Source of the DNA: a virus
IMG/VR virus record: IMGVR_UViG_3300006033_000025
Reading direction: 5' to 3' (one strand)
Length of the DNA: 64,000 bases
The notes under the pieces are model-generated. The model was not told the DNA's origin and ran no database searches. It saw only the letters and a list, made by a program, of their open reading frames with translations. The number at the start of each line of letters is the position of its first letter. Within the stretch, counting starts at the first letter, position 1. Below are positions 1,979-43,764 of the stretch, one piece after another. Position numbers and translations under genes: made by a program.

Positions 1979-2703
1979 GGCTTCTTCGGCGCCGTCATCG
2001 CCTTCTGGCGGAGATCAGCAGCGGTCTTCGCTGCCATCTCCTTGCGTTCCTTCTCACGCTTCTTCTCGTAGGCCACGCGCTCCTTTGCCTTCTTGGCGAT
2101 CGCGGCCTTGTCCTTCTTGATGCGCTCATCGTACATGATGTGCAGCGCCTCTTCGATCGGGATCGCCTTCAGACCTTCCATGGGCTTGAAGTCGGGGCGA
2201 CCATTGAAGTCGGTGAGGGCTCCCTGTGCAGCCAGCCACGGGACACCGACGATGTTGTTCTTCTTGTTCCAGCTGGCGACCATGCCGTAGATGCGCAGGC
2301 CGTCCATGAAGCGGCTCATGCCGAACATCTTCACAGCGATGGCATCCCAGGTTTCGAGGACCGGGAGCTTGGCCCACTCGTCGTTCATCTTGATCGAGTC
2401 AGGGTTACCAGCGACGTTCGCACGCGGGCGAATCCAGCGAACGTTCTTGTCTTCCTTCTCGACCCAGAGAGCAGCCTTCTCGCCGAGTGCAGCGCGGAAG
2501 TTCTGCCAGGACAGATCCTTCGGCGCGAAGCCGACGATGTAGGCATCGTTTGAGACGAGGTGGTAGTCTTTGGTCGGGAGCCACGTGTCGCCGAACTTCT
2601 TCGCCGCCTTGCGCTGCTTCTCGCGCGCAGCGATGTAGGTCTTGACGATCTCAGCAGCCGGGCTGCCGGGGATGATGCGATAGTAGGTGTATGGGGTGCT
2701 CAC
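1975..2703 (-). CDS. hypothetical protein with Lys-rich C-terminus
   Basis: track ORF 1975..2862 has a junk R/G-rich N-terminus; GTG at 2703 directly follows the stop of the 2706..2900 gene; C-terminal KKDKAAIAKKAKERVAYEKKREKERKE. Confidence 0.6.
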   Translation of the reverse strand: MSTPYTYYRIIPGSPAAEIVKTYIAAREKQRKAAKKFGDTWLPTKDYHLVSNDAYIVGFAPKDLSWQNFRAALGEKAALWVEKEDKNVRWIRPRANVAGNPDSIKMNDEWAKLPVLETWDAIAVKMFGMSRFMDGLRIYGMVASWNKKNNIVGVPWLAAQGALTDFNGRPDFKPMEGLKAIPIEEALHIMYDERIKKDKAAIAKKAKERVAYEKKREKERKEMAAKTAADLRQKAMTAPKKP

Positions 2704-2705
2704 GG

Positions 2706-2900
2706 TTATGCCTTTGCCATAGCGATGGCAGCTTGGATTTGTGCGTAGAGGGCCTTCTCGTTGGCCCGGTTCATCTGTTTCATCGCCTCGAACTGGGCGA
2801 TCTGAGCGTCGATCATCATGCGCTGTGGTCCGCGCACGTTGGAGGCGCTGGCGCGGAGCCATTCTTCATCGGTCGGTCCAGAGTCCATCAGCTCCCCCAT
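2706..2900 (-). CDS. hypothetical small protein
   Basis: 64-aa ORF, ATG start, GC3-rich. Confidence 0.5.
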   Translation of the reverse strand: MGELMDSGPTDEEWLRASASNVRGPQRMMIDAQIAQFEAMKQMNRANEKALYAQIQAAIAMAKA

Positions 2901-3349
2901 GCTGCGACTTGGGCAGCTCGCAGTTCATCGTTTTGAAGGATTCGGACCTCTTCACGACGGAAGCTGCCCACGATGAGCGGGCTTCCGGTCAGGATGTCGA
3001 CGCAGAGGCCGAGGCCCGCGAACTGTGGGTGCTTGGCGATGCACCACGTGAACCGCTGCTGTTCCCACGGCGACATGTATCGTTCTGGGAAGTAGAAGGC
3101 GAGGCTCTTGTCACACGACACCGGCCGCTTGTGCAGGATGTCGTCGATGGTGCCCGAGCCGAGTTCCTTGGTGTACTCGAACTGCGAGTCGCGAGCGCTG
3201 ATGTCCTTGGCGACAAGGCACCGCCAGAGGACCGTGCTGACATCGCCACGTTTCGCATCGGCGTTGACCTGCTGCATCACCGTACGGTGGTGCTCGTGCG
3301 TGCCGAATGCCTGATCGAACATGCTGGACGCCGAAAATGCCTCGATCAT
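2888..3349 (-). CDS. hypothetical protein
   Basis: 153-aa ORF, ATG start in ATGA overlap with upstream gene. Confidence 0.65.
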   Translation of the reverse strand: MIEAFSASSMFDQAFGTHEHHRTVMQQVNADAKRGDVSTVLWRCLVAKDISARDSQFEYTKELGSGTIDDILHKRPVSCDKSLAFYFPERYMSPWEQQRFTWCIAKHPQFAGLGLCVDILTGSPLIVGSFRREEVRILQNDELRAAQVAAWGS

Positions 3350-5917: not shown

Positions 5918-6343
5918 TCAGGCTGCCTTCTGCACGCAGACCAAGCCGGCGCCGATCATCTGCTTCTTCAGATCGTCAGGGAGGTGCGGCATGACGGTGT
6001 TGGGCGTCAAGAGCTTGAAGACGCCGAGGTGGACGCCGAGGGCCATGAAGCACATCGCCTCGCCCTGGTCGCCGATCCAGCCGCCCAGCTCCATGTAGCC
6101 GTGTTCGCCACCGTCGATCGGGTTGCAGTCGCAGTGGTGGCCTTTGTGTTCAGCCATCAGCTTCAGGTACTCGTCCTTGTTCGGCTCGCCGACGATGGCG
6201 ACCTTGAAGAACTCCATGTTGATGGTGTGTCGTCCCTGCTGCATGTAGAACTTCGACGTTCCGGCGTCAGGGATCGGCAGGCACTTGCCACAGATGCACT
6301 CGCCCTGCTGGGTGTGCTTGGCGACGTAGTCGTGGATGTTCAT
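5918..6343 (-). CDS. Cys/His-rich hypothetical protein
   Basis: internal ATG at 6343 in ATGA overlap with upstream stop; MNIHDYVAKHTQQGECICGKC...HKGHHCDCNPIDGGEHG. Confidence 0.6.
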   Translation of the reverse strand: MNIHDYVAKHTQQGECICGKCLPIPDAGTSKFYMQQGRHTINMEFFKVAIVGEPNKDEYLKLMAEHKGHHCDCNPIDGGEHGYMELGGWIGDQGEAMCFMALGVHLGVFKLLTPNTVMPHLPDDLKKQMIGAGLVCVQKAA

Positions 6344-6786
6344 GTGCACTCCTGGTGGTGTTGGCCGGCGATGAGCCGGGCGGTGGTGACGGCCATGTCG
6401 ATGGCCTCTTCGATCTTGTAGATCGACGGATCGCTGAGACGCCACTCGGCCTCGAATGACCCGAAGGCTTCGAGCTTCCCGAGTCCGCTGATGCGGCGGC
6501 ACTGGCCGGTGATCTTGATGTTCAGGAACGGCTTCACCGTGTAGTCACGGTGATCGACGCTGGACGAACAGCGCACCTCGACGCCGATGAACGCTGTGCT
6601 GATCCTGGAACGGATGCGCTTGGCGATGGTGTTGGCAACCTCACGGCCCTGCGTGTCCATCTTCTCGTGCAGCAGCCGCTTGTTGACCTCGTGGCGCCAG
6701 CCGGCTTCGCACTCTTCCTTGTAGTTGGTCATGTGCGACTGCATGGCCTCAGCGGCTTCACGCAGCTTGACGTCGAGCTTCTTCAC
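6340..6786 (-). CDS. hypothetical protein
   Basis: 148 aa, GTG start in GTGA overlap. Confidence 0.6.
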   Translation of the reverse strand: MKKLDVKLREAAEAMQSHMTNYKEECEAGWRHEVNKRLLHEKMDTQGREVANTIAKRIRSRISTAFIGVEVRCSSSVDHRDYTVKPFLNIKITGQCRRISGLGKLEAFGSFEAEWRLSDPSIYKIEEAIDMAVTTARLIAGQHHQECT

Positions 6787-7271
6787 GTGGTTTCCTTCAT
6801 GGTGTTGAGTCGTTCTTGGACTGCGGCTTCGATGGCAGCGTCGATGGCCGTGCGGATCTCGAACAGATCAGGCTCGGCGCCGAGCTTGAACAGCACGTGG
6901 CCAGCAGCCTTGTTGTAGAGCTTGCACAGGCACGTGGCATGATGTCGGAGGTCTTCTCGTGCCCTGTCACGAGCCTGCCAAAGCTCGCGTGCCTTCTTCA
7001 ACTCGTGTTCCAGGTTTCGGCGCGACTCCGTAATCGCACATTCGACTCGGTAGCCGAGTTCACCGATTGTGTATGCCGGATGGTTGTAGCCGAGTTTGTT
7101 CAACGCAGCTGTGACAGTCGCGACCTGCTTCTCAGCTGTCTCGGCTCGCTGCCGCCAGCTCGACTTCTCGTCGCAGTGGCGGTTTATGGCGTCGCGGTAC
7201 TGCTGGAGCTTCTCTTCTGACGGAACGATGTGCGTCTTGAGGACTTCGAGGGCGTCGAGTACAGCGCTCAT
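6783..7271 (-). CDS. hypothetical coiled-coil protein
   Basis: 162 aa, AGGAAA SD, ATG start. Confidence 0.65.
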   Translation of the reverse strand: MSAVLDALEVLKTHIVPSEEKLQQYRDAINRHCDEKSSWRQRAETAEKQVATVTAALNKLGYNHPAYTIGELGYRVECAITESRRNLEHELKKARELWQARDRAREDLRHHATCLCKLYNKAAGHVLFKLGAEPDLFEIRTAIDAAIEAAVQERLNTMKETT

Positions 7272-15936: not shown

Positions 15937-17312
15937 GACTGCGCGATCTTTGCTTTGGCAGCGACAAGGGCCTGCCGTGCTGTTTGCACACCGACAGCCA
16001 GCTGGAGGAAGTCACTGCTCGCGAGAGCAGCGTCCAGCGTGGTGACAAGTTCGGCGTATGCGCCTCGCCAGTCAGAGTGCGTGCCGGCTTCGGCAAGCAT
16101 TTGCTCTGCAATGGCGTGCTCATCCTTCAGCCGCTTCAGTTCGACATCGACCGCATCCTTGGCGGTCTTCATGTCTTCGAGCTGGTCTTCGAGGGACGAC
16201 GCCCTCTCGAACAGCATGGCGTTGGCAGTCCCGAGTTCAGCCAGCTTGGCTGTTGGGTACGACGGCGACGGGAAGCTCGCCGAGTGCTCGGCGAGTGCTC
16301 GCACTTGCGTCATTGCCTCGTTCATCGTAGTCAGCAGCGGCCCGGTATGCTTCAGGAACGATCCACGGATGTCAGCCATGGCCTTGGCGAAGGCAGCAGG
16401 ATCGTCAGTGACGAGAGCCTGCGCATCTTGCTTGCTGACCTTCTGACGCTCGGCACGCGCAGCTTCACGAGCTTCGAGTTTGGCTCGCTTCTGTTCTTCT
16501 TCGATGGCCTCGTGGGTCTCGATGATGTCCTTCAGGGCATCCATGAACAGCTCGCACGACGAGTGCCGCACACCGAGTTCGTCGATGATGACCTTGTAGA
16601 CACGCTCAGCGACTTTCTCGCGTGACGCTGGATCGCCTGCGTCGATGTCAGACATCGACAGAGCCACGAGCCGTTTCACGACACTTCGTGCTGGCTGGCC
16701 TGTGACGTCCGATGCCTTCATCAGCAGCCGCTTCAGCGACGCGGCTTTGGCCTTCGGCGCTCCGATCAGGTCTTCGACGGCTTCGATACGATCACGAGCG
16801 TCCTTGCCATCTGGCCGCTCCGAATACTTGTCGGTGTGACGGGTCTCCAGCACCTCGTCTCGGAGTGCGAGCATGATCTCCTGCTCGTTGTTGAACGCAG
16901 TGCGATCCTCGTGCCTCTGGATGTACCTGTCGACGAGGTGGCAGCAGTAGTTTGCGATACGTGAGTATTCGAATCGGAATGCCTGCCTGACGTCACTTCC
17001 GAGGTTGAGTCGTGACTTCACATCGCCGGTCGACGAGGACATGGCGACGCGAAGCATCTTCAGCTTCGGGTGGCACAGCACGTAGCTGTGCGTTGTTCTC
17101 GGCAGTTCCACGAGGCCGTACGGTTCTGCCCATGCCTTCCACTCGTCGAAGTCCCAGGCCCTGACGAGTCCGGGTCGCGGCATCTCGGACATCCGGGGAA
17201 GCCCGAATGTCGATGCCACGAGATCGAGGTTCGCGTCGCCCGACGAATCGAGCAGTTTCTGTAGCACCGAGTTCAGTAGCGGTGCGTCTGACGCTGGTGA
17301 TGAAGTACTCAT
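15933..17312 (-). CDS. large hypothetical protein (459 aa)
   Basis: long GC3-rich ORF with GGAGAA SD; no motif recognised. Confidence 0.8.
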   Translation of the reverse strand: MSTSSPASDAPLLNSVLQKLLDSSGDANLDLVASTFGLPRMSEMPRPGLVRAWDFDEWKAWAEPYGLVELPRTTHSYVLCHPKLKMLRVAMSSSTGDVKSRLNLGSDVRQAFRFEYSRIANYCCHLVDRYIQRHEDRTAFNNEQEIMLALRDEVLETRHTDKYSERPDGKDARDRIEAVEDLIGAPKAKAASLKRLLMKASDVTGQPARSVVKRLVALSMSDIDAGDPASREKVAERVYKVIIDELGVRHSSCELFMDALKDIIETHEAIEEEQKRAKLEAREAARAERQKVSKQDAQALVTDDPAAFAKAMADIRGSFLKHTGPLLTTMNEAMTQVRALAEHSASFPSPSYPTAKLAELGTANAMLFERASSLEDQLEDMKTAKDAVDVELKRLKDEHAIAEQMLAEAGTHSDWRGAYAELVTTLDAALASSDFLQLAVGVQTARQALVAAKAKIAQS

Positions 17313-17539
17313 GCTGGTTCTCCGTTCGTGATCGGCCAGTCGTCAGGGCGAAGTTTTGCCTTGAAGCCGGACGCTAGGTTGGGGTGGGTGATCTCGCACT
17401 CGTTCGGGCCGTTCCAGTCGATGTCCCAGTCATCATCGTCTTTCGTCTTCCGTGAAATCCAGTTCGCGAGGTCCTGCTGGGTCGCATTCTCTTTGCTGAC
17501 GTACTTGCTGCCAGAGTGTTGATAGATGACTAGGAGCAT
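17309..17539 (-). CDS. hypothetical small acidic protein
   Basis: ATG at 17539 with GGAAAGG SD (MLLVIYQHSGSKYVS...); track start 17578 is TTG. Confidence 0.5.
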   Translation of the reverse strand: MLLVIYQHSGSKYVSKENATQQDLANWISRKTKDDDDWDIDWNGPNECEITHPNLASGFKAKLRPDDWPITNGEPA

Positions 17540-17732
17540 CTGGTGCCTTTCCAGGGTGATGCGAGTGGCCTTTGCCAACGCAGTTGATGCAGCGTATCGC
17601 CCACTTGCGGCGCTTCATTTTTACATGGAGCGCCGCGTGTTCGTTGGTCGCGTCGACCTTCTCGAAGAACCCCTGGCCCGCTGCCACCTCTGCATCGCAG
17701 CGGAGGCAGCGGCCTGGGAACTTGTTCCTCAC
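17433..17732 (-). CDS. possible zinc-ribbon protein
   Basis: GTG start in GTGA overlap with PARP-like gene stop; CLRCD...CINCVGKGH; 3' third overlaps next gene. Confidence 0.4.
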   Translation of the reverse strand: MRNKFPGRCLRCDAEVAAGQGFFEKVDATNEHAALHVKMKRRKWAIRCINCVGKGHSHHPGKAPDAPSHLSTLWQQVRQQRECDPAGPRELDFTEDERR

Positions 17733-18988
17733 GCAGCGAACTCGATCAGACGAACCACGTTGGTCTGGCTCGTCTTGTAGACGATCGCTTCATGCGCGCT
17801 GAATCCGGCGGCGCCTGGGACGACGTCGACAGAATCGTAGCCCGCAGGCGGGCTCTGGACGCGGGACTTCGGGATGAAGCCCTTGCCCATCGCGACTTCG
17901 ACCAGGAACATGTAGCAGCTGCGACGAACCGACGAGCGGAACTGCCCGGCGTAGCTCATGCTCTTGTGGCTCTGGCGGCTGGCATAGACGCCGTTGCCAA
18001 AGTTGCGACCGTTCGAGCAGTGGGCAGGGATGATGAGGCCCTTGGCGAAGATGGAGAGGACGTTGCCGACGCTGGTGCCGTGCCACATCTCTTCGACGTT
18101 GCCGATCTTCTTGCCCTCCTTGTCGAACGCCTTCTTCATATGGTTGATCGTCACGTCGTAGACGTTGCGAACATCCATGTCGGGGCGTCCGTACTCGTAG
18201 GTCTTCTTGAACTTGGTGCGGATGCGCTCGATCTCGGTCGTGTCGAGCATCTTCTTGATGTCAATGTCCCACACGCGAGGTGCCTTCGGTGCCTTCTTGC
18301 TCTTCACTGGCTTGGCAGCCATCTCCAGCGAACCTTCGAGGGATTCGAGGATGTCGTTCTGCTTCTGCACAGCGTCGAGGTTCGGAAACATCCGATTGAA
18401 CGTCGGCCGGTCACGGCCTATGTCCGTCGGGATGAGCATCATGTAGGCAGCAGCCAGCTTGTTGACATCAGCTTCCACTACCATACCCGGCGCTGTCAGC
18501 ACATGCTGAATCTCCGCGAGACGCTCGCGTGCTTCGTCGATCGAGTCCTGGCTGACGATGCCGAGCGGCGTGCTGAACAGGCCCGACACCTTGTCGTACT
18601 TCAGCGTAGTAGCCGACGAGATGTTGTGGACGTTCTGCTCGCTGAGGAAGGTAACCAGCTTGGCGATGGTCGGATCGCCTTTAGCGATCTCGTCGACGGC
18701 GGTCTTCGCCGTAGCAGCGCCCTTGGTCTGCGGCTGTGCTGGCTCTGCACCAGCGATCGCCACCTCCTTGTAGCCGTCCTTCAGCGCGCTCTTCAGCTTC
18801 GCGCGTGCCTTGCTCTCGCTGACGAGATGCGTGACGCCGGGGTCACCGACGCGTCCATAGCTGTGGAGGAACTGGCCGTCGGCCTGCTTCTCCCACTTAT
18901 GGAACTTGTTGCTGTTGTTCTTAGACGTTGAGGTCGCCTCAGTGCTCACGCACACGATGACGACCTTGTCCGGCATGACATCGACCAT
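17729..18988 (-). CDS. poly(ADP-ribose) polymerase-like protein (WGR domain + PARP catalytic domain)
   Basis: N-terminus FHKWEKQADGQFLHSYGRVGDPG = WGR-type motif; C-terminus WHGTSVGNVLSIFAKGLIIP...GNGVYAS...YMFLVEVAMGKGF...IVYKTSQTNVVRLIEF aligns to the PARP H-G-S / Y-Y-E catalytic core. Confidence 0.8.
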   Translation of the reverse strand: MVDVMPDKVVIVCVSTEATSTSKNNSNKFHKWEKQADGQFLHSYGRVGDPGVTHLVSESKARAKLKSALKDGYKEVAIAGAEPAQPQTKGAATAKTAVDEIAKGDPTIAKLVTFLSEQNVHNISSATTLKYDKVSGLFSTPLGIVSQDSIDEARERLAEIQHVLTAPGMVVEADVNKLAAAYMMLIPTDIGRDRPTFNRMFPNLDAVQKQNDILESLEGSLEMAAKPVKSKKAPKAPRVWDIDIKKMLDTTEIERIRTKFKKTYEYGRPDMDVRNVYDVTINHMKKAFDKEGKKIGNVEEMWHGTSVGNVLSIFAKGLIIPAHCSNGRNFGNGVYASRQSHKSMSYAGQFRSSVRRSCYMFLVEVAMGKGFIPKSRVQSPPAGYDSVDVVPGAAGFSAHEAIVYKTSQTNVVRLIEFAA

Positions 18989-19396
18989 TCAGTTCTTCTC
19001 TTTCTTGGCATTCTCGGCCGCGACGACCGAGTTGTGGTAGTCGATGGCCGCCTGACCAGCCTTCTTGAAGAGTTCGATGCACTCGTCGGTGTAGGCCCGG
19101 CCACGCGAGTCCCTGCCCGTGGCGTGGCCGACGCCGACCATGCCAGCGAGTGGACGCGGGCCCCGCGTGAAGACCGGGTCGTTGAAGAGGACGAAGTGGA
19201 ACTTCGTTCCAGGCGTGTCGGTCGATTCGAGCGGGTAGACCCAGATGCCTTCGACATCCTCTTGCTCGTCGGAGCCGGCCTTTCGCTTGCCGAGGTTCAC
19301 CTTCTCCAGCTTCTTGCTGGCACTCATCGCCTCGTACTCGTCAGTGGTGACGTAGCCGCGCTTGATGATGGTTTCAGGGATGATCTTGGTACTCAT
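18989..19396 (-). CDS. hypothetical protein adjacent to PARP-like gene
   Basis: ATG at 19396 with AAAGGA SD; 135 aa; stop abuts PARP start (TGAATG). Confidence 0.55.
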   Translation of the reverse strand: MSTKIIPETIIKRGYVTTDEYEAMSASKKLEKVNLGKRKAGSDEQEDVEGIWVYPLESTDTPGTKFHFVLFNDPVFTRGPRPLAGMVGVGHATGRDSRGRAYTDECIELFKKAGQAAIDYHNSVVAAENAKKEKN

Positions 19397-20237
19397 CGAG
19401 TTGGTCCTTTGGGAACTCACGGTTGTTGTCTTTGCACCAATCCCAGATCGTGTCGATCTGCGACTGGGTTGGCTTGGTGTGCCAATAGAGGTCAGCAGGC
19501 TTCTTGATGAGGCCCTGGTTTGCTTCCTGGACTTTCACCCATCCTTGTTTGAGCATCTCGTCACCGTTCTTGTACCCCAGCGCATCAGCGAGTGCGTCGT
19601 GCTGGAAGTACTTGCACGGGAAGAAGACCCCGTCCTTTTTGATCCAACCGCACCAGTTGCCCTTCAGTGGCCCTGGCTCTGGTTTGACGGTTTCAGCCGT
19701 AGCGCCCATGTACTGCATGAAGAACATGGCGTTCGGATCCTTCAGGATCTCACGCGGAACGAGGGCTCCGCCGATTCTGAAGCTATCGAGCTTGGGTTCT
19801 GCCACCGACTGGTCAGCGAACTGGATGGCCATGCGCACGCGCTGGTCACGCCGTCTCTCGTCCTCTTCTTCGATGGCAATGCTGAGCAGACGCAGCGGCT
19901 CGGCCAGCCGCTTCTCGGCGGCTTTGTCGATCATGCGCGTCAGCGTCTTGGACATCACGTCAGAGAACGACAGCAAGTTGCCATGCTCGCTCACTGTGAC
20001 GTTGTCATCTTCGAGGTGCATGTCGGAGTCGGGGCCACTCGACTTGCCTGCGAGCTTCAGAGAACCCGTCAGGATCTGGAAGATGCGCTGCATGCTGAAC
20101 TCGGGGAAAGCCGAGGTGAGCACCTTCACAGCGTGGAACGGCTCGTCTTCATCGGCCCACCGGGAGCGGCAGAAGTTCGTCAGCCACTCGCCATGGATCG
20201 TGAAGTAGAGCTTGCGTGTCGTGGTCGAAGTTGTCAT
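19374..20237 (-). CDS. hypothetical protein
   Basis: 287 aa, AAGAGG SD. Confidence 0.7.
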   Translation of the reverse strand: MTTSTTTRKLYFTIHGEWLTNFCRSRWADEDEPFHAVKVLTSAFPEFSMQRIFQILTGSLKLAGKSSGPDSDMHLEDDNVTVSEHGNLLSFSDVMSKTLTRMIDKAAEKRLAEPLRLLSIAIEEEDERRRDQRVRMAIQFADQSVAEPKLDSFRIGGALVPREILKDPNAMFFMQYMGATAETVKPEPGPLKGNWCGWIKKDGVFFPCKYFQHDALADALGYKNGDEMLKQGWVKVQEANQGLIKKPADLYWHTKPTQSQIDTIWDWCKDNNREFPKDQLDEYQDHP

Positions 20238-20449
20238 TCCAGCCTCTTTGCTACGTCGATAGCACTGCCTTCGACGTCGATGCTCACGCTGTCGCGCATC
20301 ACGATGGTGCTCACCTTGTCTCGCCGCAGTGGGTGAAGAGCCGGCGTCACGTACAGGACGTGACGCCGGACCACCATCACAGCGCGGCCAGGAGCTGCCA
20401 CTGGCCGGGGATCGGCCAGCGTCAGCTCAACGAAGCGCCGCTTGGCCAT
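20234..20449 (-). CDS. hypothetical small protein
   Basis: 71 aa, ATGA overlap. Confidence 0.45.
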   Translation of the reverse strand: MAKRRFVELTLADPRPVAAPGRAVMVVRRHVLYVTPALHPLRRDKVSTIVMRDSVSIDVEGSAIDVAKRLE

Positions 20450-20763: not shown

Positions 20764-21339
20764 TCAGTAGTGCTCGGGGTCGATGGTCTGTTCGAGCCAC
20801 CGGATGGCAGCATCGAGTTCGTCAAAGAGCGGCATGGTTGCGAGGCTCGAAACGGCAGACGACGTGATGCCGTTGTCCTCACTGAGAGCGTTGTACAGCA
20901 GCCGGGACTCGGACGCGTACAGACGCTTGAATGAATCAGCGAAGTGCCCCATCTCGCGCAGGTTATCAGCCCTGTCCGCGAGCTTGATGCACTTGGCTTC
21001 GAGGCTGACCTTTGACAGGTGCTCTCGATCGAGCTGCTTGCGGGCAGCACGATTCAGAGCCTTGTTCTCGGGCTTGTGCGACGGGTTCGTCAGTTCGAGA
21101 ACCAGCTGCATGGTTCCGAAGTTGAGGCTGTTGCCGATGTCGTTGGCCGGGACGGTGGTGTCTTCGAGAATGTCGTGACACCACGCGGCAGCGACCATCT
21201 CTTCGGTGGCGTTGTCGAGGCGCGAGATGCGTGCAGCGACGCGGCCAGGGTGGATGATGTACGGAAGGTCCATGCCCTTCCGCTTCTGCCCATGGTGGGC
21301 GATCTCAGCGAACTTGGCGGCCCGGAGGATGATGTTCAT
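20764..21339 (-). CDS. HD-domain small alarmone hydrolase (RelA/SpoT-type (p)ppGpp/(p)ppApp hydrolase)
   Basis: AEIAHHGQKRKGMDLPYIIHPGRVA...CHDILEDT matches the HD motif of RelA/SpoT/Mesh1 hydrolases. Confidence 0.75.
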   Translation of the reverse strand: MNIILRAAKFAEIAHHGQKRKGMDLPYIIHPGRVAARISRLDNATEEMVAAAWCHDILEDTTVPANDIGNSLNFGTMQLVLELTNPSHKPENKALNRAARKQLDREHLSKVSLEAKCIKLADRADNLREMGHFADSFKRLYASESRLLYNALSEDNGITSSAVSSLATMPLFDELDAAIRWLEQTIDPEHY

Positions 21340-23591: not shown

Positions 23592-23921
23592 TTATTGTCC
23601 TTTGAACGTGATGCGTGTGCAGACGTCGATTTCGAAGCCTTCGTGCCAGCTACCTGCCGTGTCGACATCGGCAGTGTTCTCGCCGACACGAACGAAGTAG
23701 TACAGATCGTCGTCGAGATCCAGGAGGTACTCGTGGATCGCACGACACTCCGGGAAGTAATCGGGCTCGTCGATGTACCACTTCAGGTGCTTATCGAAGA
23801 ACAGCTTGCCGTCTGGGCCTTCGTCAGCGTGGCTGAAGAGACTGCGCAGGTGCTTGAGGATAGCCGGAGGTACTTCGACCTCCGGCTTCAGGGCGACGAC
23901 AACCTGTGAGCGGTAGCCCAT
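23592..23921 (-). CDS. hypothetical protein
   Basis: 109 aa, acidic. Confidence 0.6.
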   Translation of the reverse strand: MGYRSQVVVALKPEVEVPPAILKHLRSLFSHADEGPDGKLFFDKHLKWYIDEPDYFPECRAIHEYLLDLDDDLYYFVRVGENTADVDTAGSWHEGFEIDVCTRITFKGQ

Positions 23922-24491
23922 CTACTTCTTTCCCTTCTTCATCTGCTTCTTGAACTGTTCGACGGTGCGGCTCGCCCAGCTGCTTGAGTTCATCCACTTG
24001 GCGCGGCGGTGCGTGAACACGACAGCGCCACCGTCGAACTCGTCGACGCGCATCTTGGAGCACGTGCACGCCCAGGTCATGTACCAGGGCGCAGCTGACT
24101 GCATCTCGGGAACGACGGTAGCCAGGAGCTGGAGGCAGCGGACAGCAGAGTCGACGTCGATGCTCTCGTCAGCCTTCACCCAGATGTCTTTGGCGTCGAG
24201 CTGCCAGTCGAATCCGAGGTATTCCCATTCGAGCTTCCAGCTCTTCACGACCTTCATGACGCGCTGAGCGCGCTTCTTCGTGTCGAGGTTGTCGAACAGG
24301 AGCGGCTTGTCGCCGGGAGGTTCGAGGCTCTTAATGAACGCATCGACATCGTCGACGGACTTGTCGTCCGGGTCGCCAGTCCCGTAGAGTTCGTGAGCCT
24401 TCTCGATCATGATCATAGCAGCCAGGATCGCGTTCTGGTCGGCGCCGCCGATGTCGATGCTCGACGACGACAGCATGTAGTTGTTAGCCAT
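23922..24491 (-). CDS. hypothetical protein
   Basis: ATG at 24491 overlaps thyX stop (TAATG); MANNYMLSSSSIDIGGADQNAILAAMIMIEKAHELYG...; upstream half of track ORF 23922..25070 is junk. Confidence 0.6.
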   Translation of the reverse strand: MANNYMLSSSSIDIGGADQNAILAAMIMIEKAHELYGTGDPDDKSVDDVDAFIKSLEPPGDKPLLFDNLDTKKRAQRVMKVVKSWKLEWEYLGFDWQLDAKDIWVKADESIDVDSAVRCLQLLATVVPEMQSAAPWYMTWACTCSKMRVDEFDGGAVVFTHRRAKWMNSSSWASRTVEQFKKQMKKGKK

Positions 24492-25585
24492 TAGACTGCC
24501 GACGGCCAGACTTCGTGGATGATGTTGACGATCTTCTCGTCGCTCACCAGCTTGCTGCGGCGCAGCTTGCCAGCGAACTCGTCGAAGCGGCGCTTGGTCC
24601 ACCCGCTGCTCGTCACAGCGTTGAGTTCGAAGCCGTTGAGTATGCCGTTGAGGACGATCAGCTCCTTGCCGGAGAAGTTCACCCCGTCGATGAAGTTGTC
24701 CTTGTGGCTCTCCCAGCTGCGCGGGAACAGGGCGTCGACCACACGGGCCATGGCGTCGGCGAAGACGCGGATCTCGTACTGGGCATGCTTGTCGGTGCGC
24801 AGCTTCAGGTAGTGCAGCATGTTCTTCAGGTCGATCTTCCACACGCACTGCGTGTAGATGTTGACGCCGAGCACGGCACGGGCCTGCTCTCGGGCGATCG
24901 GCACCTTGGCGAGCAGCTGATCGAGCGGGCTCTGGCCGTTGAACGGCTGCGCGTTGCTGGAACCGCCATAGCGCGAATCGCCGAGTTCGCCGTCGAGCGA
25001 CCCTTCGAGGAACTGCTGGTAGAGGCTGTAGGACAGGTCGTTGTGCTTCTTCAGCATGTCGTGCAGGCACTGCGCCTGGAGCGGCGAGATGCTGTACTTG
25101 ACGGTTGCCTGCTTGTCAGCTGCCGTGTTCAGCGCCCAGTCCTTGGCATCCGGGATGTAGAAGTCAGAGGCCAGCTCACTGTAGCGCGCGGACTCTTCGT
25201 TCAGGCTCGCCGTGCGGTGACGCACGTGCTGCCGCATCACGAAGATCGGCAGACGGATGTGGAACTTCAGCTCGCCCATCTCGATTGGGCTGGTGTGTTG
25301 GTTGCGGATGAGGTGGTCGATCAGGCCAGCATCAGCGCTGACCTTGCGGGTGCCCTTCTGGTAGCTGATGCGAGCGGCGTCAGCGATGGCAAAGTCGCAG
25401 GACGGCACGCCGTTGTCGTTGGGGCCTCCGCCGTCGACCTTTGGCAGCGGCACGAGGCGCGGCATGCAGTCCAGGATCTTGACGAAGCCGTGGTCCAGGC
25501 ACTTCTGGTTCAGCAGCTCAGGCGCGATGGTAGCGAGGACGTCGACCATCTGGTCGCCGGTCACCGGGTCGGTGAGAGTGTTCAC
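24491..25585 (-). CDS. thyX: flavin-dependent thymidylate synthase ThyX (long form)
   Basis: ThyX signature RHRX7S present as RHRTASLNEES; 364 aa. Confidence 0.8.
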   Translation of the reverse strand: MNTLTDPVTGDQMVDVLATIAPELLNQKCLDHGFVKILDCMPRLVPLPKVDGGGPNDNGVPSCDFAIADAARISYQKGTRKVSADAGLIDHLIRNQHTSPIEMGELKFHIRLPIFVMRQHVRHRTASLNEESARYSELASDFYIPDAKDWALNTAADKQATVKYSISPLQAQCLHDMLKKHNDLSYSLYQQFLEGSLDGELGDSRYGGSSNAQPFNGQSPLDQLLAKVPIAREQARAVLGVNIYTQCVWKIDLKNMLHYLKLRTDKHAQYEIRVFADAMARVVDALFPRSWESHKDNFIDGVNFSGKELIVLNGILNGFELNAVTSSGWTKRRFDEFAGKLRRSKLVSDEKIVNIIHEVWPSAV

Positions 25586-25818
25586 TTGGGTTTCTCCGAT
25601 CGTTTCAGGATCTCTTCGAGGTGTTGTTGGAGGCCGAGCATCTCCACGCGGAGCATGTAGTCGTCTCCATTGCCACGATTGACATAATCGAGGCCGAGTT
25701 GTTGCAGGCTGTGCATCTTGCGCGTCAGCGACATGATGTCGTTCTTCGAGACGCTCCGTGGCGGCATGGGCCGTCGTAGCGCTGTGAAGACATCTTCAGG
25801 GTCTATCTCTTCGCTCAC
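25582..25818 (-). CDS. hypothetical small protein
   Basis: 78 aa, ATGA overlaps. Confidence 0.5.
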   Translation of the reverse strand: MSEEIDPEDVFTALRRPMPPRSVSKNDIMSLTRKMHSLQQLGLDYVNRGNGDDYMLRVEMLGLQQHLEEILKRSEKPK

Positions 25819-33872: not shown

Positions 33873-35255
33873 TTACCCCTTGGGGATGAGGGCCTGGAGG
33901 CGACGGCGCGCGTCCATACCCGTGTTCTCGATCTTCTCGATCATCGCGATGGCGTCACGGACGACCACACGCGTGTTGCTTGCCTCGATGCTGATGCAGT
34001 CATTGACGGCCTCGACGAGCTGGTCGAGATCACCAACCTTGCAGTGGTAGTCCAGCGTCTTGAGCTTGGTGGAGCCCTTGACAGCACACTGGATCTTGAT
34101 CAGTGTCGAGCGGTAGGCGCGCAGTGCCTCACAGCTCGCTTTGATCGACGTCAGCAGCGTGCCAGCCGTCTTCACGGTCGGCCATCCGAGATCATTCAGC
34201 CCATCGCCAGCGTGCGTGCGGCAGCTGTCGGTGAACACGTCCATGTTGATGGTGAACTCGGCCTGCTTCCGTCCCTGTGCAGCGATGCGGTTGGCTTCGA
34301 TGAGGCAGTCCTCCATCGTCTTGGTCTCGTCGTTGAAGAACGCGATGCCGAGCTTTCCCCAGCCTTCGCGCTCGAACTCCAGCTCTTCGCGCAGGCGATC
34401 GCGCTCGGCAACGACCTCTTCTATCGTCCTGACTCGCGCGTCGAGGCGAGCGTCCTTGTTCTCAATCGTCTTGAAGCTGGCACGGATCGCGTCATGCAGC
34501 TGACCGAACAGCAGGCGCAGGTTGTCGCGCGGATGATTGGTCTCCGTGACGAGTGCCTTGCCGAGCAGCTGTGTGTTCGTCGAGGCCATGTCCTTGACGA
34601 ACTTCAGATCCGCGAACTTGCGGTCTTCGATGTTCTTGCGCAGCTTCTCGTCGAGCGCCGTGAGCGTATGGAGGATGAACTCGCGCACAGGCCGTGAGAT
34701 GTCGTACTGGATTGGCAGGTCGAACCGGGTCACGATGCTGCGAGCCGTGTCGATCATGACACCGGAGATGGTGCGGTGCTCCGTCTGGCACTGCCATGCC
34801 TGGATGCGCTTGAACGCCTCCAGAATCGTCTCCTTCTTGGTCTGCGTGAACGGAGAGTCGATGCCGAGCACCTTGAGGGTCTCGTACGCGGCCTTCTCCA
34901 TCTCGATGAACGACGGGTTGTAGTCCCGCAGCTCCGCGCGCAGGCCATCGCAGGTCTTCGCGAGTTCCTTCAGGTTGTCGTGAATCCGGTCGTTGGCGTC
35001 GGACTCGTCCTTGCATCGCTTCTGGAGATGTGCGATGAACTCGTCTTGTTTCACCAGCTTGGCACGCAGCTCGGTGTTGAGGCGCTCGACTGCCACCTTG
35101 GCATCATGCGATTGACCCGTCAGCTCGCGCTGCGTCTTGCTGGTCTGCTTCTCCTGCTCCAGCTCATGCGCCAGTCTCTCGTTGGTCATCTGAAGATCGC
35201 GCACCTGGATCTTCAGCTTCTCCATCGTCACTTCGATGTCGTTAGATGCGGTCAT
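33873..35255 (-). CDS. large coiled-coil protein (460 aa)
   Basis: long GC3-rich ORF; ATG immediately preceded by the AACGAAAACGAAAAC leader motif. Confidence 0.75.
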   Translation of the reverse strand: MTASNDIEVTMEKLKIQVRDLQMTNERLAHELEQEKQTSKTQRELTGQSHDAKVAVERLNTELRAKLVKQDEFIAHLQKRCKDESDANDRIHDNLKELAKTCDGLRAELRDYNPSFIEMEKAAYETLKVLGIDSPFTQTKKETILEAFKRIQAWQCQTEHRTISGVMIDTARSIVTRFDLPIQYDISRPVREFILHTLTALDEKLRKNIEDRKFADLKFVKDMASTNTQLLGKALVTETNHPRDNLRLLFGQLHDAIRASFKTIENKDARLDARVRTIEEVVAERDRLREELEFEREGWGKLGIAFFNDETKTMEDCLIEANRIAAQGRKQAEFTINMDVFTDSCRTHAGDGLNDLGWPTVKTAGTLLTSIKASCEALRAYRSTLIKIQCAVKGSTKLKTLDYHCKVGDLDQLVEAVNDCISIEASNTRVVVRDAIAMIEKIENTGMDARRRLQALIPKG

Positions 35256-39006: not shown

Positions 39007-41829
39007 TTACTTGTTGCGGTTCGGCTGCGGCTTGTCGCTGCCGTACTTGTCGGGGTTCTGCGCCACGTCCTTGATGTCTGAGGCCGTGTCGCGCTTCAGG
39101 TTGTCCTTGATGACGTCGGCCTGCGTTCCAGTCGGAGCCTGTGCGGCCACGGGGGCTTCGCCGGCCTTGAAGTGCGCGTTCAGTTCCTCAGCAGACGGAG
39201 CCGTGGGATCACAGTTGAAGTTGCCGCGCACCATGCGGTAGTAGCGGCGCTTCTCGGTCGGGGAGCGCGGGTCGTGGTACGACTCGATCTTCCAACCGTC
39301 GATCACCATCTTGCCGTCCTTCACAGCGTTGCAGAACTTCTGCACCGCCGTGCTCTCCTTGATGTGGTACTCGCGGAGAACGTCGGAATAGCGGCGCTGA
39401 TCCTGGTCTTCGACCATCTTGCGCAGCATTTCGGCAGCGCCCCACATCTTGCCATCGTTGCGAGCGATGATCTCCAGCGTGCTGACGGTGCACTGGCTGA
39501 AGAAGTGGCGGGCCGAGAACTCGCCGTTCGCACCGATCTCATCAGCCAGTCCGCTTTCGGTGGCCTTGAGATGCTGGTCCTCACACTTGTTGGCACATGC
39601 CTCGAAGTAGTCGTAGACCTCCTTCTCAGTGCCACCAGCAGCCTGACACAGAGCCACGGCAACTGCGATGAACGCAGAGAAGCGGTTGTGCTTGCTGGCC
39701 TTCGGGACGATGGTGTTCAGCTTCTCGACGAAGCCGATGCGGTCCATCCACGCGAGCGCGTTCATGCGCACGGTGCTGGCAGCGACGCCAGTGCCGATGA
39801 TCGTCAGCTCTTCGTCGGTGCACCGCGACTTGTCGTCGATAGTGTCCATGAAGAAGCAGAACGAACGGTTGCGGATGTCGACAGGGAACGCGCTGATCTT
39901 CGCGCAGATGACCATGGAGTGCTTGAGCTTGACGCCCTTGCTGTTTTCCATGGCGCGGCCCGGCGTGACCGTGCCACCCGTTGCCAGCGACTGGAGTCCG
40001 GCCTGAGCCAGGAAGTGCTCATGGCTCGACGGCAGCTGGAACTCGTCGTAGATCGCGGTGCCGTAGTCGTCGAGCGGCGAAGCCGCAGCGCGCTGAGCAG
40101 GTGCGCTCGACGAGCGCGACGGGATGATGACAGGAACGTTCGGGCAGATCGTGTGCAGCATGATGCGGCCCAGATTGGTCTTGCCCTGATTGGTCGTCTC
40201 TTCCTTCGTATGACCCATGGGGAGGATCATGCCGATAGGGTACTCGTTCACCATGGAGTTGCCGAGCTTCGTACCAGCCAGCTTGGGGCGAGCCAGATTC
40301 AGCAGGATCCAGGTGTCGAAGATCGCGTTGCGTGCCCGGACCATGCCCAGGTCATTGCAGTTGCGGATGTACTTGAAGACGGTTTCGGACGGGAGCATCG
40401 GCTTCACCTCTTTCGGGAGACAGGACTTCCAGGTCATGAGTTCGGACTTCGTGAGCGCGCCTTCAGGCCACTGGATCGCACCGATGTCGAGACCCGTGAG
40501 GATCTCTTCGATCACGACCTTTCCGCTGTCGTAGTCGATGTGTGCGACGTTGGTCGCGCCGATGCCGTAATCGACGAACATGTATTCCCCGATGTACTTC
40601 ATGGTGGGGACCAGTTCGACAGCCCGTGGAACAGCGAGGTGAATCAGATCATCGAGCGAACGAAGCTCGCACAGATCAGTCGGGCGCAGCATGTCGAAGA
40701 TGCCCAGGACGCTCGTCGACGGCGGCGGGAAGTCAGCATTGACTGACGTCGGCAGGCCGAGGGCCTTGAGAACGTCGATGCGCAGCTTGGTGTTCTGCGA
40801 CATACCGAACGATGCCCGCAGCTGTGTTGCGTCGAGGTAGAACAGGTTGCGACGCCCGTCGCGGATCACCTGCACGACGGGGCAGCCACGGTCACTGACA
40901 TGGCTGAACCGCGCGTACTTCAGGATGTGCGTGAGGATGACGAGCGTGAACCAGTCACCGGGAGCACACGAACGGCGTTCGAGGAACGCAGTCAGCTTTG
41001 CACCGTCGACGCGCAGCAGACCCATGGGGTAGCCATGGATTCGGCGTGCGACCATAGCGGACTCACGCAGCTGGTCTTCGTGGCAGGTCTCCCAGAAGTC
41101 GAGGCCCTCGTAGTAGTCCTTCAGCCGGCTTGCGACAGCACGAACGACACCGAAGCCGAGGCCCGTGAGCAGGCACAGATGCTTCCCATAACGAAACTCG
41201 GCGTCGAGATACTCGGCGCCGAGAGGCTTGAACCAGAAGCGATGGAGCTTGGCGAGCTGGTCGACGATCTCTCCGAGTGTCACGATGTCTTCAGTCACCA
41301 TCGTGCCGATCGCGGAGTGTGCCAGCGTGTTGCCAGCAGCTCCGAGACCTGTTGAGGCGCCGAATGGGCAGTCCTCTTTGAGCATCTTGACGAATGCCTC
41401 TTGGCATCCTGCATTGTCAGCGAGTGGAGATCCAGCGTTGCTACGGTTCCATGACGTCGGGCGATCATCGCTCTTATTCACGAATCCCGGCAGCCACGGG
41501 TTGGTCTCATCGAGACGACGCGAGAGGTTCAGGTTGCACTTCTTCGCGAACTGTTCCCAGGTCTCGCCTGGGCTGATTCCGCGAATGGCGCGCACAGCCG
41601 GAACATCGAACGGCGTCAGCTCTTCGACCTTCGGGAGCGTGGGGTTCTGCTGCGTGTGGTAGTGCCATGTCGAGGCACGACGAACAACAGCGAGCCAGGG
41701 CTCCTTCGAGAACTTCTGAAACTCTTCGATCACTTCCCGGCTGAACATCGGGCCGGTGTAATCATCCGGGTGCTTGATGACGGGTTCGCCACTTGGTGCC
41801 GGTTCCGGCACCGTGTTCACGGCATTCAT
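39007..41829 (-). CDS. large replication protein (940 aa), putative primase/helicase
   Basis: Walker-A-like NQGKT and hhhhDE-like AIYDEF in central region; position between DNA polymerase and exonuclease genes; domain call tentative. Confidence 0.85.
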   Translation of the reverse strand: MNAVNTVPEPAPSGEPVIKHPDDYTGPMFSREVIEEFQKFSKEPWLAVVRRASTWHYHTQQNPTLPKVEELTPFDVPAVRAIRGISPGETWEQFAKKCNLNLSRRLDETNPWLPGFVNKSDDRPTSWNRSNAGSPLADNAGCQEAFVKMLKEDCPFGASTGLGAAGNTLAHSAIGTMVTEDIVTLGEIVDQLAKLHRFWFKPLGAEYLDAEFRYGKHLCLLTGLGFGVVRAVASRLKDYYEGLDFWETCHEDQLRESAMVARRIHGYPMGLLRVDGAKLTAFLERRSCAPGDWFTLVILTHILKYARFSHVSDRGCPVVQVIRDGRRNLFYLDATQLRASFGMSQNTKLRIDVLKALGLPTSVNADFPPPSTSVLGIFDMLRPTDLCELRSLDDLIHLAVPRAVELVPTMKYIGEYMFVDYGIGATNVAHIDYDSGKVVIEEILTGLDIGAIQWPEGALTKSELMTWKSCLPKEVKPMLPSETVFKYIRNCNDLGMVRARNAIFDTWILLNLARPKLAGTKLGNSMVNEYPIGMILPMGHTKEETTNQGKTNLGRIMLHTICPNVPVIIPSRSSSAPAQRAAASPLDDYGTAIYDEFQLPSSHEHFLAQAGLQSLATGGTVTPGRAMENSKGVKLKHSMVICAKISAFPVDIRNRSFCFFMDTIDDKSRCTDEELTIIGTGVAASTVRMNALAWMDRIGFVEKLNTIVPKASKHNRFSAFIAVAVALCQAAGGTEKEVYDYFEACANKCEDQHLKATESGLADEIGANGEFSARHFFSQCTVSTLEIIARNDGKMWGAAEMLRKMVEDQDQRRYSDVLREYHIKESTAVQKFCNAVKDGKMVIDGWKIESYHDPRSPTEKRRYYRMVRGNFNCDPTAPSAEELNAHFKAGEAPVAAQAPTGTQADVIKDNLKRDTASDIKDVAQNPDKYGSDKPQPNRNK

Positions 41830-42060: not shown

Positions 42061-42702
42061 TGCTCCATCGTCCGCAGGCGCTGCGCGCATGCCTTCGCCG
42101 CTGAGCATCCACTTGAGCCCAGCGATTGAAGCGCGGCAGTCGTACTTCGCGTCGTGAGCCTTCTCGATGTTGTAGCCCGCGTACTTCGCGAGCGTGCCGA
42201 GGTTGTTCTTGCCGTTCACGAGTGCGCCCGTTGCCGGATCGCGCACCTTCAGCATGTTGTTCTTCTTGCGCCACTCCTTGAACTCGACGAGGGTGTCGAC
42301 CATGTCCGGTGAGAACATCATCGCGCACATCGGGAAGAACTTCTGGAGGAACGTCACGTCGAAGCGACGGATGTTGTGCCCGATGCTGACGGGCTTCTGG
42401 TCGGGGAACCACTGCCGGATGTACTTCGCGAAGAAGACTTCGGCTTCCTTCAGCGGCATGGCGTTCGCCCAGCCAGCTTCGGTGTAGCCGTTCACAGCAG
42501 CAGCTCCGGGCTCGATGATGAGGCCGGGCACCGGCTTGATCTTCACGCTGAGCGCGTCGATCTCGTCGAGCGCAGCAGTCACGACGACCATGGCGAGCTG
42601 GAGCGGCGGATTCTTCTCCGGGCTGAGGCCGCCGGTCTCGAAGTCGTAGGCGATGCCATAGGCGCCGGACGTTGCAGTGGGGACAGATGCGAGTTCAGAC
42701 AT
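42049..42702 (-). CDS. DnaQ-like 3'-5' exonuclease (DEDDh)
   Basis: exo I YDFETGG, exo II HNIRRFD, exo III HDAKYD; ATG at 42702; earlier part of track ORF is junk. Confidence 0.75.
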   Translation of the reverse strand: MSELASVPTATSGAYGIAYDFETGGLSPEKNPPLQLAMVVVTAALDEIDALSVKIKPVPGLIIEPGAAAVNGYTEAGWANAMPLKEAEVFFAKYIRQWFPDQKPVSIGHNIRRFDVTFLQKFFPMCAMMFSPDMVDTLVEFKEWRKKNNMLKVRDPATGALVNGKNNLGTLAKYAGYNIEKAHDAKYDCRASIAGLKWMLSGEGMRAAPADDGADRE

Positions 42703-43504
42703 GGTGATTTCCGTACTTCTGAGCGAGACGCTTGAGACTGGCTCCAGCGACTTCATCGAGGGTGAGGCCGGCGCTGATGGCGACGGCATTGAGGTAGAAC
42801 AATGCGTTGCCGAGTTCGACGCACAGAACGTCTTTCGGGATGCCGTTGGCGTCGCGCGTGGCTTTCTTGATGAGGGACGCGATCTCACCGGACTTACCGG
42901 CGAGGCCGAGCGCACTATAGCCGAGCGACCCGAGCGCAGTGTTCGGCAGCTTCGGGACGCCCTGTGCGTAGGCATTGAACGTCATCGTCGTATCGGAGTC
43001 AGCCTTGAGCTGCACGTTCTTGTGCACCGTCACGACGTTGTCTTCGACGACGATCGTGCCGACGTCGCCGGTCTCTTCGCCTTGCCAGATGAACTGGCCG
43101 TTGGCCTTGATGCCCCATGGCTTGAAGAGCTTCTCGATGAGGTATTCGAGCCACTCGGTGTACTTGTAGAACTTCTCGCCGCCATTCCAGACGAGATCGC
43201 CGTCATCGTCGATGATCCACTGACACCAGAGGCCGGGCTGCGTGCCCGGTGGGCGGTTGTTGTCGAGGACTGACTTGAAGTGGTCGCCCTGGCCGAAGTC
43301 GCCGGGTTCGCCGACGAAGAACTCGCCCTCGTCACCGGGCGGAAGCCCGACGGCTTCACGAATCGGATCAGGAACGCCGACGAGCCGCATGAAGCTACGC
43401 TTCATGCGGCGGGTGTCGGCGAGCTTGTTGATGAAGGCAGCCTGTGCGTCGCTCAGCTTTGGCGACAGCACGAGGTTGCCCTCGAAGTTGGTGGTGTATC
43501 CCAT
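42695..43504 (-). CDS. two-domain protein with C-terminal MazG-like NTP pyrophosphohydrolase domain
   Basis: ATG at 43504 overlaps upstream stop (TAATG); C-terminal LCVELGNALFYLNAVAISAGLTLDEVAGASLKRL is MazG/HisE-like. Confidence 0.65.
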   Translation of the reverse strand: MGYTTNFEGNLVLSPKLSDAQAAFINKLADTRRMKRSFMRLVGVPDPIREAVGLPPGDEGEFFVGEPGDFGQGDHFKSVLDNNRPPGTQPGLWCQWIIDDDGDLVWNGGEKFYKYTEWLEYLIEKLFKPWGIKANGQFIWQGEETGDVGTIVVEDNVVTVHKNVQLKADSDTTMTFNAYAQGVPKLPNTALGSLGYSALGLAGKSGEIASLIKKATRDANGIPKDVLCVELGNALFYLNAVAISAGLTLDEVAGASLKRLAQKYGNHHV

Positions 43505-43764
43505 TAGAGCCGCTTCTCGGGAAGGTCGACGCGAAGCGCTTGGGCTTCGGGCCGGTAGTTGATGTCGTTGGCGATCGCGTTCACCGCATCCTCCGGGTAG
43601 GTGCATCCACCAACCCGGAAGAAGTGAATGAAGGCTTCTTTGTTGGCTGCGACGAACTTCTGAACGATGATGCGCTCTTCGATGATCTCGTCGATGCGCT
43701 GGTTGTGCCGACGATCGAGTTCGCGCTGGAGTTCGTCTTCACTGAATGTGCTGAGGTCAGTCAT
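43504..43764 (-). CDS. hypothetical small protein
   Basis: last 86 codons of track ORF 43504..44559; ATG overlaps upstream stop (TGATG); MTDLSTFSEDELQRELDRRHNQRIDE... Confidence 0.55.
   Translation of the reverse strand: MTDLSTFSEDELQRELDRRHNQRIDEIIEERIIVQKFVAANKEAFIHFFRVGGCTYPEDAVNAIANDINYRPEAQALRVDLPEKRL

Follow-up and report, generated by a model that had tools for sequence, protein, structure and literature searches.

A compact WGR-PARP gene in a phage-like stretch of DNA belongs to a catalogued family and has DUF7352 as a candidate partner

The poly(ADP-ribose) polymerases (PARPs) of Herpetosiphon aurantiacus (HaPARP) and Clostridioides difficile CD160 (CdPARP) automodify with poly(ADP-ribose) (PAR) in vitro when supplied with NAD+ and activated DNA, and the activity of HaPARP required DNA (PMC8120803, PMC5966428). 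PARPs have also been reported from bacteriophages. One was noted in phage Aeh1 in 2005 (Otto et al., PMC1266365), phage PARPs were listed in 2014 (Perina et al., PMC4245714), protein BBA65562.1 of phage XacN1 is the jumbo-phage PARP example of Iyer et al. (PMC7824862), and the PART/PARP family is among the most frequent viral families of ADP-ribosyltransferases (ARTs) according to the same group (PMC9503650). Here, we describe a PARP gene in a 64,000-nucleotide stretch of viral DNA (IMG/VR record IMGVR_UViG_3300006033_000025; the whole stretch is referred to as the window), and compare the gene and its neighbours with these systems.

The PARP gene is an ATG-start open reading frame (ORF) of 419 amino acids on the minus strand (17729..18988). 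A sequence-only reading of the window, made without database searches, had delimited the ORF correctly and omitted its strand. The GC contents at the three codon positions (0.57/0.40/0.83) are like those of the other genes of the window, and a plus-strand ORF overlapping the gene (17792..18931) was rejected as a high-GC antisense artefact. The identical protein (P0001) is encoded on a metagenomic contig of 200,781 bp; an exact 39-mer of the gene gave no match in IMG/VR or in the JGI metagenome contigs.

The product is a three-domain PARP of the PARP1-3 type, in which a WGR domain, a regulatory helical domain (HD) and an ART domain follow one another; several comparisons confirmed this architecture. 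Pfam recognised the catalytic domain (PF00644 PARP, 66.2 bits against a cut-off of 26.7 bits, E = 3.6e-18, residues 251-387) and the HD (PF02877 PARP_reg, 39.1 bits against a cut-off of 26.8 bits, E = 9.5e-10, residues 106-234). The best single-sequence match in the PDB was PARP3 (E = 1.3e-15), and the profile of PHROG 23333 covered residues 22-417 with positions 14-382 of its 383 positions (E = 2e-40). A family profile aligned with human PARP2 from the WGR domain to the C-terminus (profile 6-421 with PARP2 123-582, E = 1.9e-47). The AlphaFold2 model (mean pLDDT 82, pTM 0.68) consists of strands at residues 8-56 and a helix at 58-70, a disordered linker, helices at 92-225 and an ART domain at 242-418. 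Its top Foldseek matches were the WGR-HD-ART parts of PARP1 and PARP2 in complexes with DNA double-strand breaks (E about 1e-23, TM 0.65-0.69, about 475 aligned columns), including the WGR and catalytic chain of PARP1 (4opx_C, about 473 columns), and the Foldseek probability to the catalytic domains of PARP1/2/3/4 was 1.00. Hence, Pfam, the PDB search and Foldseek all agree with the PARP core proposed by the sequence-only reading, and structure prediction, its suggested check, returned an ART domain that matches DNA-bound PARP1 and PARP2 chains. The same reading had named both the WGR and PARP domains and overlooked the HD between them.

The N-terminal domain was confirmed as a WGR domain by family-profile homology and by its AlphaFold fold, despite a sub-threshold Pfam score. 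We aligned 27 family members (the PARP of the window and 26 homologues, the majority with a precomputed WGR match). Asn27 and Lys28 of the NKF block, Gly45 and Arg46 of the [W/Y]GRVG block and the hydrophobic core of the HD were invariant in this alignment, and none of the members of subclade P0001-P0017 has a precomputed Pfam WGR match. The expected Trp-Gly-Arg motif held as a domain assignment and not as a motif, because the sequence reads Tyr-Gly-Arg. The protein resembles bacterial PARPs in this respect, since in those enzymes the first WGR position is most often occupied by Tyr (Garcia-Saura et al., PMC5966428).

All motif strings of the sequence-only reading occur in the translation: SYGRVGDPG at residues 43-51, WHGTSVGN at 302-309, GNGVYAS at 331-337, YMFLVEVAMGKG at 359-370 and IVYKT...LIEF at 402-417. 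The H-Y-E triad that it had proposed to check is intact (H303/Y335/E400). The family alignment shows no variation at H303, G304, Y335, K342, Y346 and E400, and S343 is present. In PARP1/2/3, the HG, GxGxY, KS..Y and NE.IVY blocks align with these residues, and we take their PARP1 counterparts to be H862, G863, Y896, K903, Y907 and E988, in the order given for the invariant residues. The spacing is 32 residues from His to Tyr and 65 residues from Tyr to Glu. Relatives at 43-83% identity have retained the same length and motifs. The coordinates of the domains and residues, and of a recurrent companion gene, are listed in Table 1.

Table 1. Location of the PARP gene, its domains and catalytic residues, and the DUF7352 gene in the window.
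Feature	Position	Strand	Evidence
PARP gene	17729..18988	-	WGR, HD and ART domains; Pfam, PHROG 23333, ORF translation
WGR-type domain, about residues 6-78	18755..18973	-	Four beta strands and a helix; NKF(H) and Y-G-R-V-G signatures
Y44-G45-R46 signature, Tyr replacing Trp	18851..18859	-	Sequence and family alignment
PARP regulatory helical domain (HD), Pfam residues 106-234	18287..18673	-	PF02877; helical in model; aligns with HD of PARP1/2/3
ART catalytic domain, residues 242-418	17735..18265	-	PF00644; PARP4 alignment reaches residue 418; Foldseek
His303 of H-Y-E triad, in WHGTS	18080..18082	-	Codon cac; invariant; aligns with HG of PARP1/2/3
Tyr335 of H-Y-E triad, in GNGVYAS	17984..17986	-	Codon tat; invariant; aligns with GKGIYFA of PARP1/2
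Glu400, catalytic, in AHEAIVY	17789..17791	-	Codon gaa; invariant; family NE-IVY block aligns with NEYIVY of PARP2
DUF7352 gene, about 103 aa	20451..20762	-	PF24043, E = 2.5e-16; PHROG 3848; start codon uncertain

The protein is probably a catalytically competent WGR-PARP ('PART') enzyme of the bacterial and phage kind, working as an ADP-ribosyltransferase gated by DNA ends or nicks, and it is likely expressed together with replication genes. By analogy with PARP2/3, HaPARP and CdPARP, the small WGR domain would bind a DNA end or nick. Binding would lift the autoinhibition exerted by the HD and open the NAD+ pocket, after which the H303/Y335/E400 site would use NAD+ to ADP-ribosylate the enzyme itself and proteins near the break. 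The DNA ends near the break may be further acceptors, and chains of PAR may be built. We infer DNA-dependent activation, poly- versus mono-activity, the targets and the benefit to the phage from these analogues. Nothing specific in the window favours a role against NAD-dependent defence, which had also been suggested.

The closest biochemically described relatives share this compact layout. HaPARP and CdPARP likewise consist of WGR, PARP_reg and PARP_cat domains in about 420-450 amino acids, without zinc fingers or BRCT domains. CdPARP has a triad of H322, Y359 and E428 (spacing 37 and 69 residues, versus 32 and 65 in the phage PARP), and its short loop before the catalytic Glu resembles that of the phage PARP. 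In contrast, the bacteria of HaPARP and CdPARP encode a reversing PARG (DUF2263), whereas none was found in the window, and the phage clade differs from bacterial WGR-PARPs by an insert in the WGR domain and by its DUF7352 companion. The DNA-dependent 'clade 1' enzymes PARP2 and PARP3 of humans have the same WGR-HD-ART core, and their H, Y and E as well as the G, K, S and Y of the NAD site are kept in the phage PARP. Conversely, the phage PARP lacks an N-terminal extension, its WGR domain is shorter, about 27 residues of the loop before the Glu are missing, identity is only about 20%, and HPF1 and other eukaryotic partners are absent.

Seven phages in GenBank encode proteins that are 29-33% identical to the PARP of the window over 94-99% coverage, namely Klebsiella phages 05F01, FBKp34 and KP13-16, Xanthomonas phages XacN1 and Xoo-sp13, and Stenotrophomonas phages CM1 and RAS14. 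Several of these are annotated as 'poly(ADP-ribose) polymerase' or 'ADP-ribosylation'. They share PHROG 23333 with our protein in full-length matches, and occur in large or jumbo phages among early nucleotide-metabolism genes; apart from the low identity, they differ in their neighbour genes. In 05F01 and XacN1, no gene annotated as DUF7352 occurs up to 6 kb from the PARP in either direction, although no DUF7352 search was run there. Relatives are encoded on at least 108 viral contigs of IMG/VR, many of 100-545 kb, and at about 80 loci in cellular genomes or metagenome-assembled genomes (MAGs). The protein database contained 199 relatives, including a subclade at 43-83% identity. No PARP found in 185,579 species-representative genomes exceeds 42% identity to the clade of the window. 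The gene thus adds a new and divergent member to the WGR-PARPs of phages and bacteria, which are already catalogued as a family, and would not surprise a specialist. The rarity implied by the sequence-only reading is contradicted by PHROG 23333, the GenBank annotations, the IMG/VR contigs and papers from 2005-2022; its novelty was overstated because phage PARPs had already been catalogued in these sources.

The gene context of the window is of a phage type. Nearly all genes lie on the minus strand, as does the PARP gene. Genes of DNA metabolism comprise a family A DNA polymerase with a 3'-5' exonuclease domain, a SNF2-like helicase and an ATP-dependent DNA ligase, the latter about 41 kb from the PARP gene. 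Further genes encode DUF932, ThyX, dCTP deaminase, a MazG-like pyrophosphatase, NT5C and a DHH/DHHA1 phosphoesterase, as well as an RNase T-type exonuclease, an SPFH protein, a GNAT acetyltransferase and an HD_4 hydrolase. The nucleotide-metabolism and ligase set is located at 23900-25600, 42695-43606, 59035-59934 and 60223-61470, all on the minus strand. Two long ORFs, of 940 aa (39007-41829) and 460 aa (33873-35255), had no Pfam or PHROG match, no tRNA genes were detected in the window, and a search for near-identical DNA to 12-26 kb of the window among GenBank phages gave no match. One ORF of the window carries a prokaryotic N-terminal methylation (pilin-like) motif. The sister contigs, with PARPs 43-44% identical to ours, carry T4-type portal genes. 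The assignment to a phage-like element, as in the sequence-only reading, is therefore upheld. We accept the PARP gene as likely phage-borne because of the PHROG DNA-metabolism matches, the dense one-directional genes and the portal genes on sister contigs; this assignment is not proven inside the window.

One of the sister contigs, L003, is an 80.6 kb sequence (MVZY01000002.1; GCA_002068545.1) deposited in the MAG 'Firmicutes bacterium ADurb.Bin506'. Besides its PARP gene (OPZ65996.1), it has a T4-type portal gene, ParB-like genes and a DNA methylase gene. It has the appearance of phage DNA that was assigned to a bacterial MAG during binning, and a number of the published 'bacterial PARPs' may therefore be phage genes.

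Locally, the start codon of the PARP gene adjoins the stop codon of the preceding gene (TGAATG). Between 15500 and 22000, the coding strand is free of terminator-like sites, and the counts of promoter and terminator candidates around the PARP gene equalled shuffle expectation. The TGAATG junction, the shared strand and the lack of a coding-strand terminator-like site place the PARP gene inside a long co-directional array. A GTG-start candidate ORF of 99 aa (17433-17732, minus strand) overlaps the PARP stop codon (GTGA). It has CxxC...CxxC in its first ~55 residues, which gives it a zinc-ribbon-like look, its tail overlaps ORF 17309-17578, its codon-position GC signature is weak, and it has no homologue in the related loci.

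The sequence-only reading had found no partner recognisable by motif, and our Pfam survey of the window agreed with it; comparative genomics, in contrast, revealed DUF7352 as a clade-wide companion. Each of the 10 distinct loci of the clade (the window, L087, L089, L090, L002, L024, L007, L006, L004 and L092) has a DUF7352 gene upstream of the PARP gene and on its strand. The gap between the two genes ranges from about 10-30 nt up to about 1.5 kb, with the window at about 1.5 kb. DUF7352 is the sole family besides PARP that is common to the whole clade within 10 kb on either side, while the flanks vary between PolA/GNAT, IS605 TnpB, T4 portal/DEAD helicase and NAD-dependent ligase genes. The protein is all-beta in its structure model (pLDDT 92) and had no relative in the PDB, and the public gene call extends its ORF to 20813. 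Judging from this conserved neighbourhood, DUF7352 is the best candidate partner of this PARP clade, as a putative regulator, cofactor or substrate. At L089, where the PARP is 55% identical, IS605/TnpB (Cas12f-like) genes at 2085-3263 and 6243-6788 flank the DUF7352-PARP pair, which fits a location of the pair in a mobile or variable region.

Other neighbours of the PARP gene were rejected as conserved partners. The upstream ORFs of 143 and 287 aa, an ORF of 71 aa, the 99-aa ORF at the PARP stop codon and the downstream ORFs of 89 and 459 aa had no Pfam or PHROG function, nor a homologue beside a PARP in any other compared locus, except that the 287-aa ORF had a weak match at L007, on the strand opposite to the PARP and about 1.6-2.4 kb downstream from it. 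The HD_4 protein (RelA/SpoT-type hydrolase-like, 191 aa, 20764-21339, minus strand) is encoded 1.8 kb upstream of the PARP gene. HD_4 genes also occur 1-5 kb from the PARP in five distantly related phage loci (L014, L015, L017, L026 and L053), which with the window makes six phage loci; this proximity could be chance co-location in accessory regions.

In most other clades, the PARP gene is followed on the same strand by a gene of an unannotated family, c2/c3, that starts 0-900 nt downstream and encodes about 180-230 aa (e.g. L017:11319-11981, L031:11799-12401, L096:6254-6964). The c2 and c3 proteins share an N-terminal domain of about 65 aa (hhalign probability 96.6%) and have no Pfam or PHROG match. 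We scanned L005-L084 from IMG/VR and L096-L175 from cellular genomes, and the c2/c3 hidden Markov models (HMMs) matched 54 of the 80 viral and 14 of the 80 cellular PARP loci. The same HMMs found nothing in the six-frame translation of the window at E<=10. A kinship of c2/c3 with DUF7352 was also considered and rejected, as hhalign showed the two to be unrelated. The c2/c3 family looks like a widespread, undescribed partner of PARPs.

Other genes recur near phage PARPs as well. Among 83 related loci, a T4-type RNA ligase gene was found near the PARP gene in 18, an ATP-dependent DNA ligase gene in 10 and a NADAR gene in seven. Of the 18 loci with a T4 Rnl1-type RNA ligase gene (PF09511; L058-L078, L033, L042 and others), 14 have it upstream of the PARP at a distance of no more than about 1.1 kb, and a putative 2H phosphoesterase recurred near PARPs alongside NADAR (PF08719). 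The ligase and NADAR associations were limited to five of the 28 PARP lineages (groups at 50% identity). These neighbourhoods suggest that some phage PARPs may be linked to the repair of RNA or DNA ends. A further family near the PARPs of other phages, cluster 7, appeared macrodomain-like by eye, but Pfam gave no match even at E<=0.1.

A number of observations count against a DNA-gated phage enzyme of the kind proposed above. The sequence-only reading had proposed an HMM check of both domains; PF00644 passed it, whereas PF05406 WGR on the single sequence scored 16.3 bits against a cut-off of 22 bits (E = 0.011, residues 22-63). The WGR domain moreover carries the clade-specific insert STEATSTSK, which leaves its binding to DNA uncertain. 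Compared with PARP1/2, about 27 residues are missing from the loop ahead of the catalytic Glu. PARP3 and PARP4 possess the H-Y-E triad yet are mono-transferases, and the triad is necessary, not sufficient, for polymerisation. A Pfam survey of 122 ORFs of the window (E<=1e-4) detected no PARG, macrodomain, ARH, NADAR, Nudix, Sir2 or NAD-salvage gene, and the PARG signature GGG-X6-8-QEE was absent from all six-frame ORFs of the window; without an eraser or NAD-salvage gene, a reversible PAR cycle is not evident. Pfam also detected no structural phage genes in the window. Three non-conserved ORFs (20234-20449, 19374-20237 and 18989-19420) separate DUF7352 from the PARP gene. More distant DUF7352 members were found without a PARP, and the link with PARP is therefore specific to the subfamily. 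No report on the biochemistry of any phage PARP was found in open-access papers or bioRxiv.

Some of these points would also suit a different chemistry. A PARP3-like mono-ADP-ribosyltransferase might act mainly on nucleic-acid termini rather than on proteins, capping phosphorylated DNA or RNA ends of phage or host and thereby blocking exonucleases or marking the ends for repair by a ligase. PARP1-3 are able to ADP-ribosylate DNA termini in vitro. The rank of PARP3 in the PDB search and the short loop before the Glu point in this direction, as do the RNA ligase, DNA ligase and NADAR genes that recur within a few kb in related phage loci and the ATP-dependent DNA ligase of the window itself. However, CdPARP and HaPARP, which belong to the same family and are similar in the spacing of their triads, synthesise protein-linked PAR in vitro, the ligase associations concern a minority of the lineages, and in the window the ligase is far from the PARP gene while NADAR and macrodomain genes are lacking. 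We consider an end-capping mono-transferase unlikely. A host-takeover enzyme comparable to Alt, ModA and ModB of phage T4 seems rather improbable. These T4 proteins are likewise phage-encoded, NAD+-dependent ADP-ribosyltransferases used in infection. They belong to the R-S-E (cholera-toxin-like) clade, in contrast to the H-Y-E (diphtheria-toxin/PARP) clade of the phage PARP, and are mono-transferases without WGR or HD that act independently of DNA breaks (PMC8120803). The phage PARP would then act without DNA, with WGR as a mere scaffold, in an early modification of host RNA polymerase, translation factors or defence proteins. According to a suggestion by Iyer et al., phage PARPs may resemble the T4 ARTs in their action while attaching polymers (PMC7824862). 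The low Pfam score and the insert of the WGR domain agree with such a role, and the GNAT acetyltransferase and HD_4 hydrolase genes in the same array fit a host-manipulation region. Yet N27, K28, G45, R46 and the hydrophobic core of the HD are invariant in the family, which favours a retained mechanism of sensing and autoinhibition, and the model superposes on the DNA-bound WGR-HD-ART of PARP1. The gene lies among replication genes rather than head or portal genes, and packaging into the virion is therefore not indicated.

PARP hyperactivation depletes NAD+ in eukaryotes. Massive DNA breakage by a competing phage or a host nuclease might similarly hyperactivate the phage PARP and drain NAD+. 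The PARP would then be a break-triggered toxin or serve in superinfection exclusion, and DUF7352 would inhibit it. The conserved cassette of PARP and a small protein across varied contexts speaks for such a conflict module, as does a window devoid of eraser and NAD-salvage genes. However, PADLOC-DB 2.0 (E<=1e-3) returned no defence match for the PARP, DUF7352 or eight neighbours, PARP and DUF7352 are not adjacent in the window, NAD+ depletion harms the phage too, and we found no experimental precedent in the literature searched. A conflict module of this kind is very unlikely. That the gene is an inactive remnant or encodes a pseudo-enzyme is hardly credible. Nothing specific speaks for it other than the divergent WGR domain and the missing loop, whereas the ORF is full-length with a coding signature typical of the genome, the NAD-site and catalytic residues are all invariant, relatives at 43-83% identity keep length and motifs, and the folded model is confident. 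Hence, we favour the enzyme gated by DNA ends or nicks.

The companion genes invite a broader, speculative interpretation. WGR-PARPs of phages and bacteria might be two-gene modules for break-triggered ADP-ribosylation with small partners, used in phage-host or phage-phage conflict, which we think doubtful. The role of partner would fall to DUF7352 in this clade and to the unrelated c2/c3 in most others, an assignment we make with as much reserve. Tentatively, such a partner might set target specificity or gate activity, like HPF1 for PARP1/2 or an antitoxin. The practical leads are these candidate partners, DUF7352 in this clade and c2/c3 elsewhere. PARPs are common in large phages, and a compact WGR-HD-ART enzyme of 419 aa would be a minimal model for break-activated ADP-ribosylation. 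Moreover, a phage PARP would reveal what a bacterial virus gains from ADP-ribosylation signalling.

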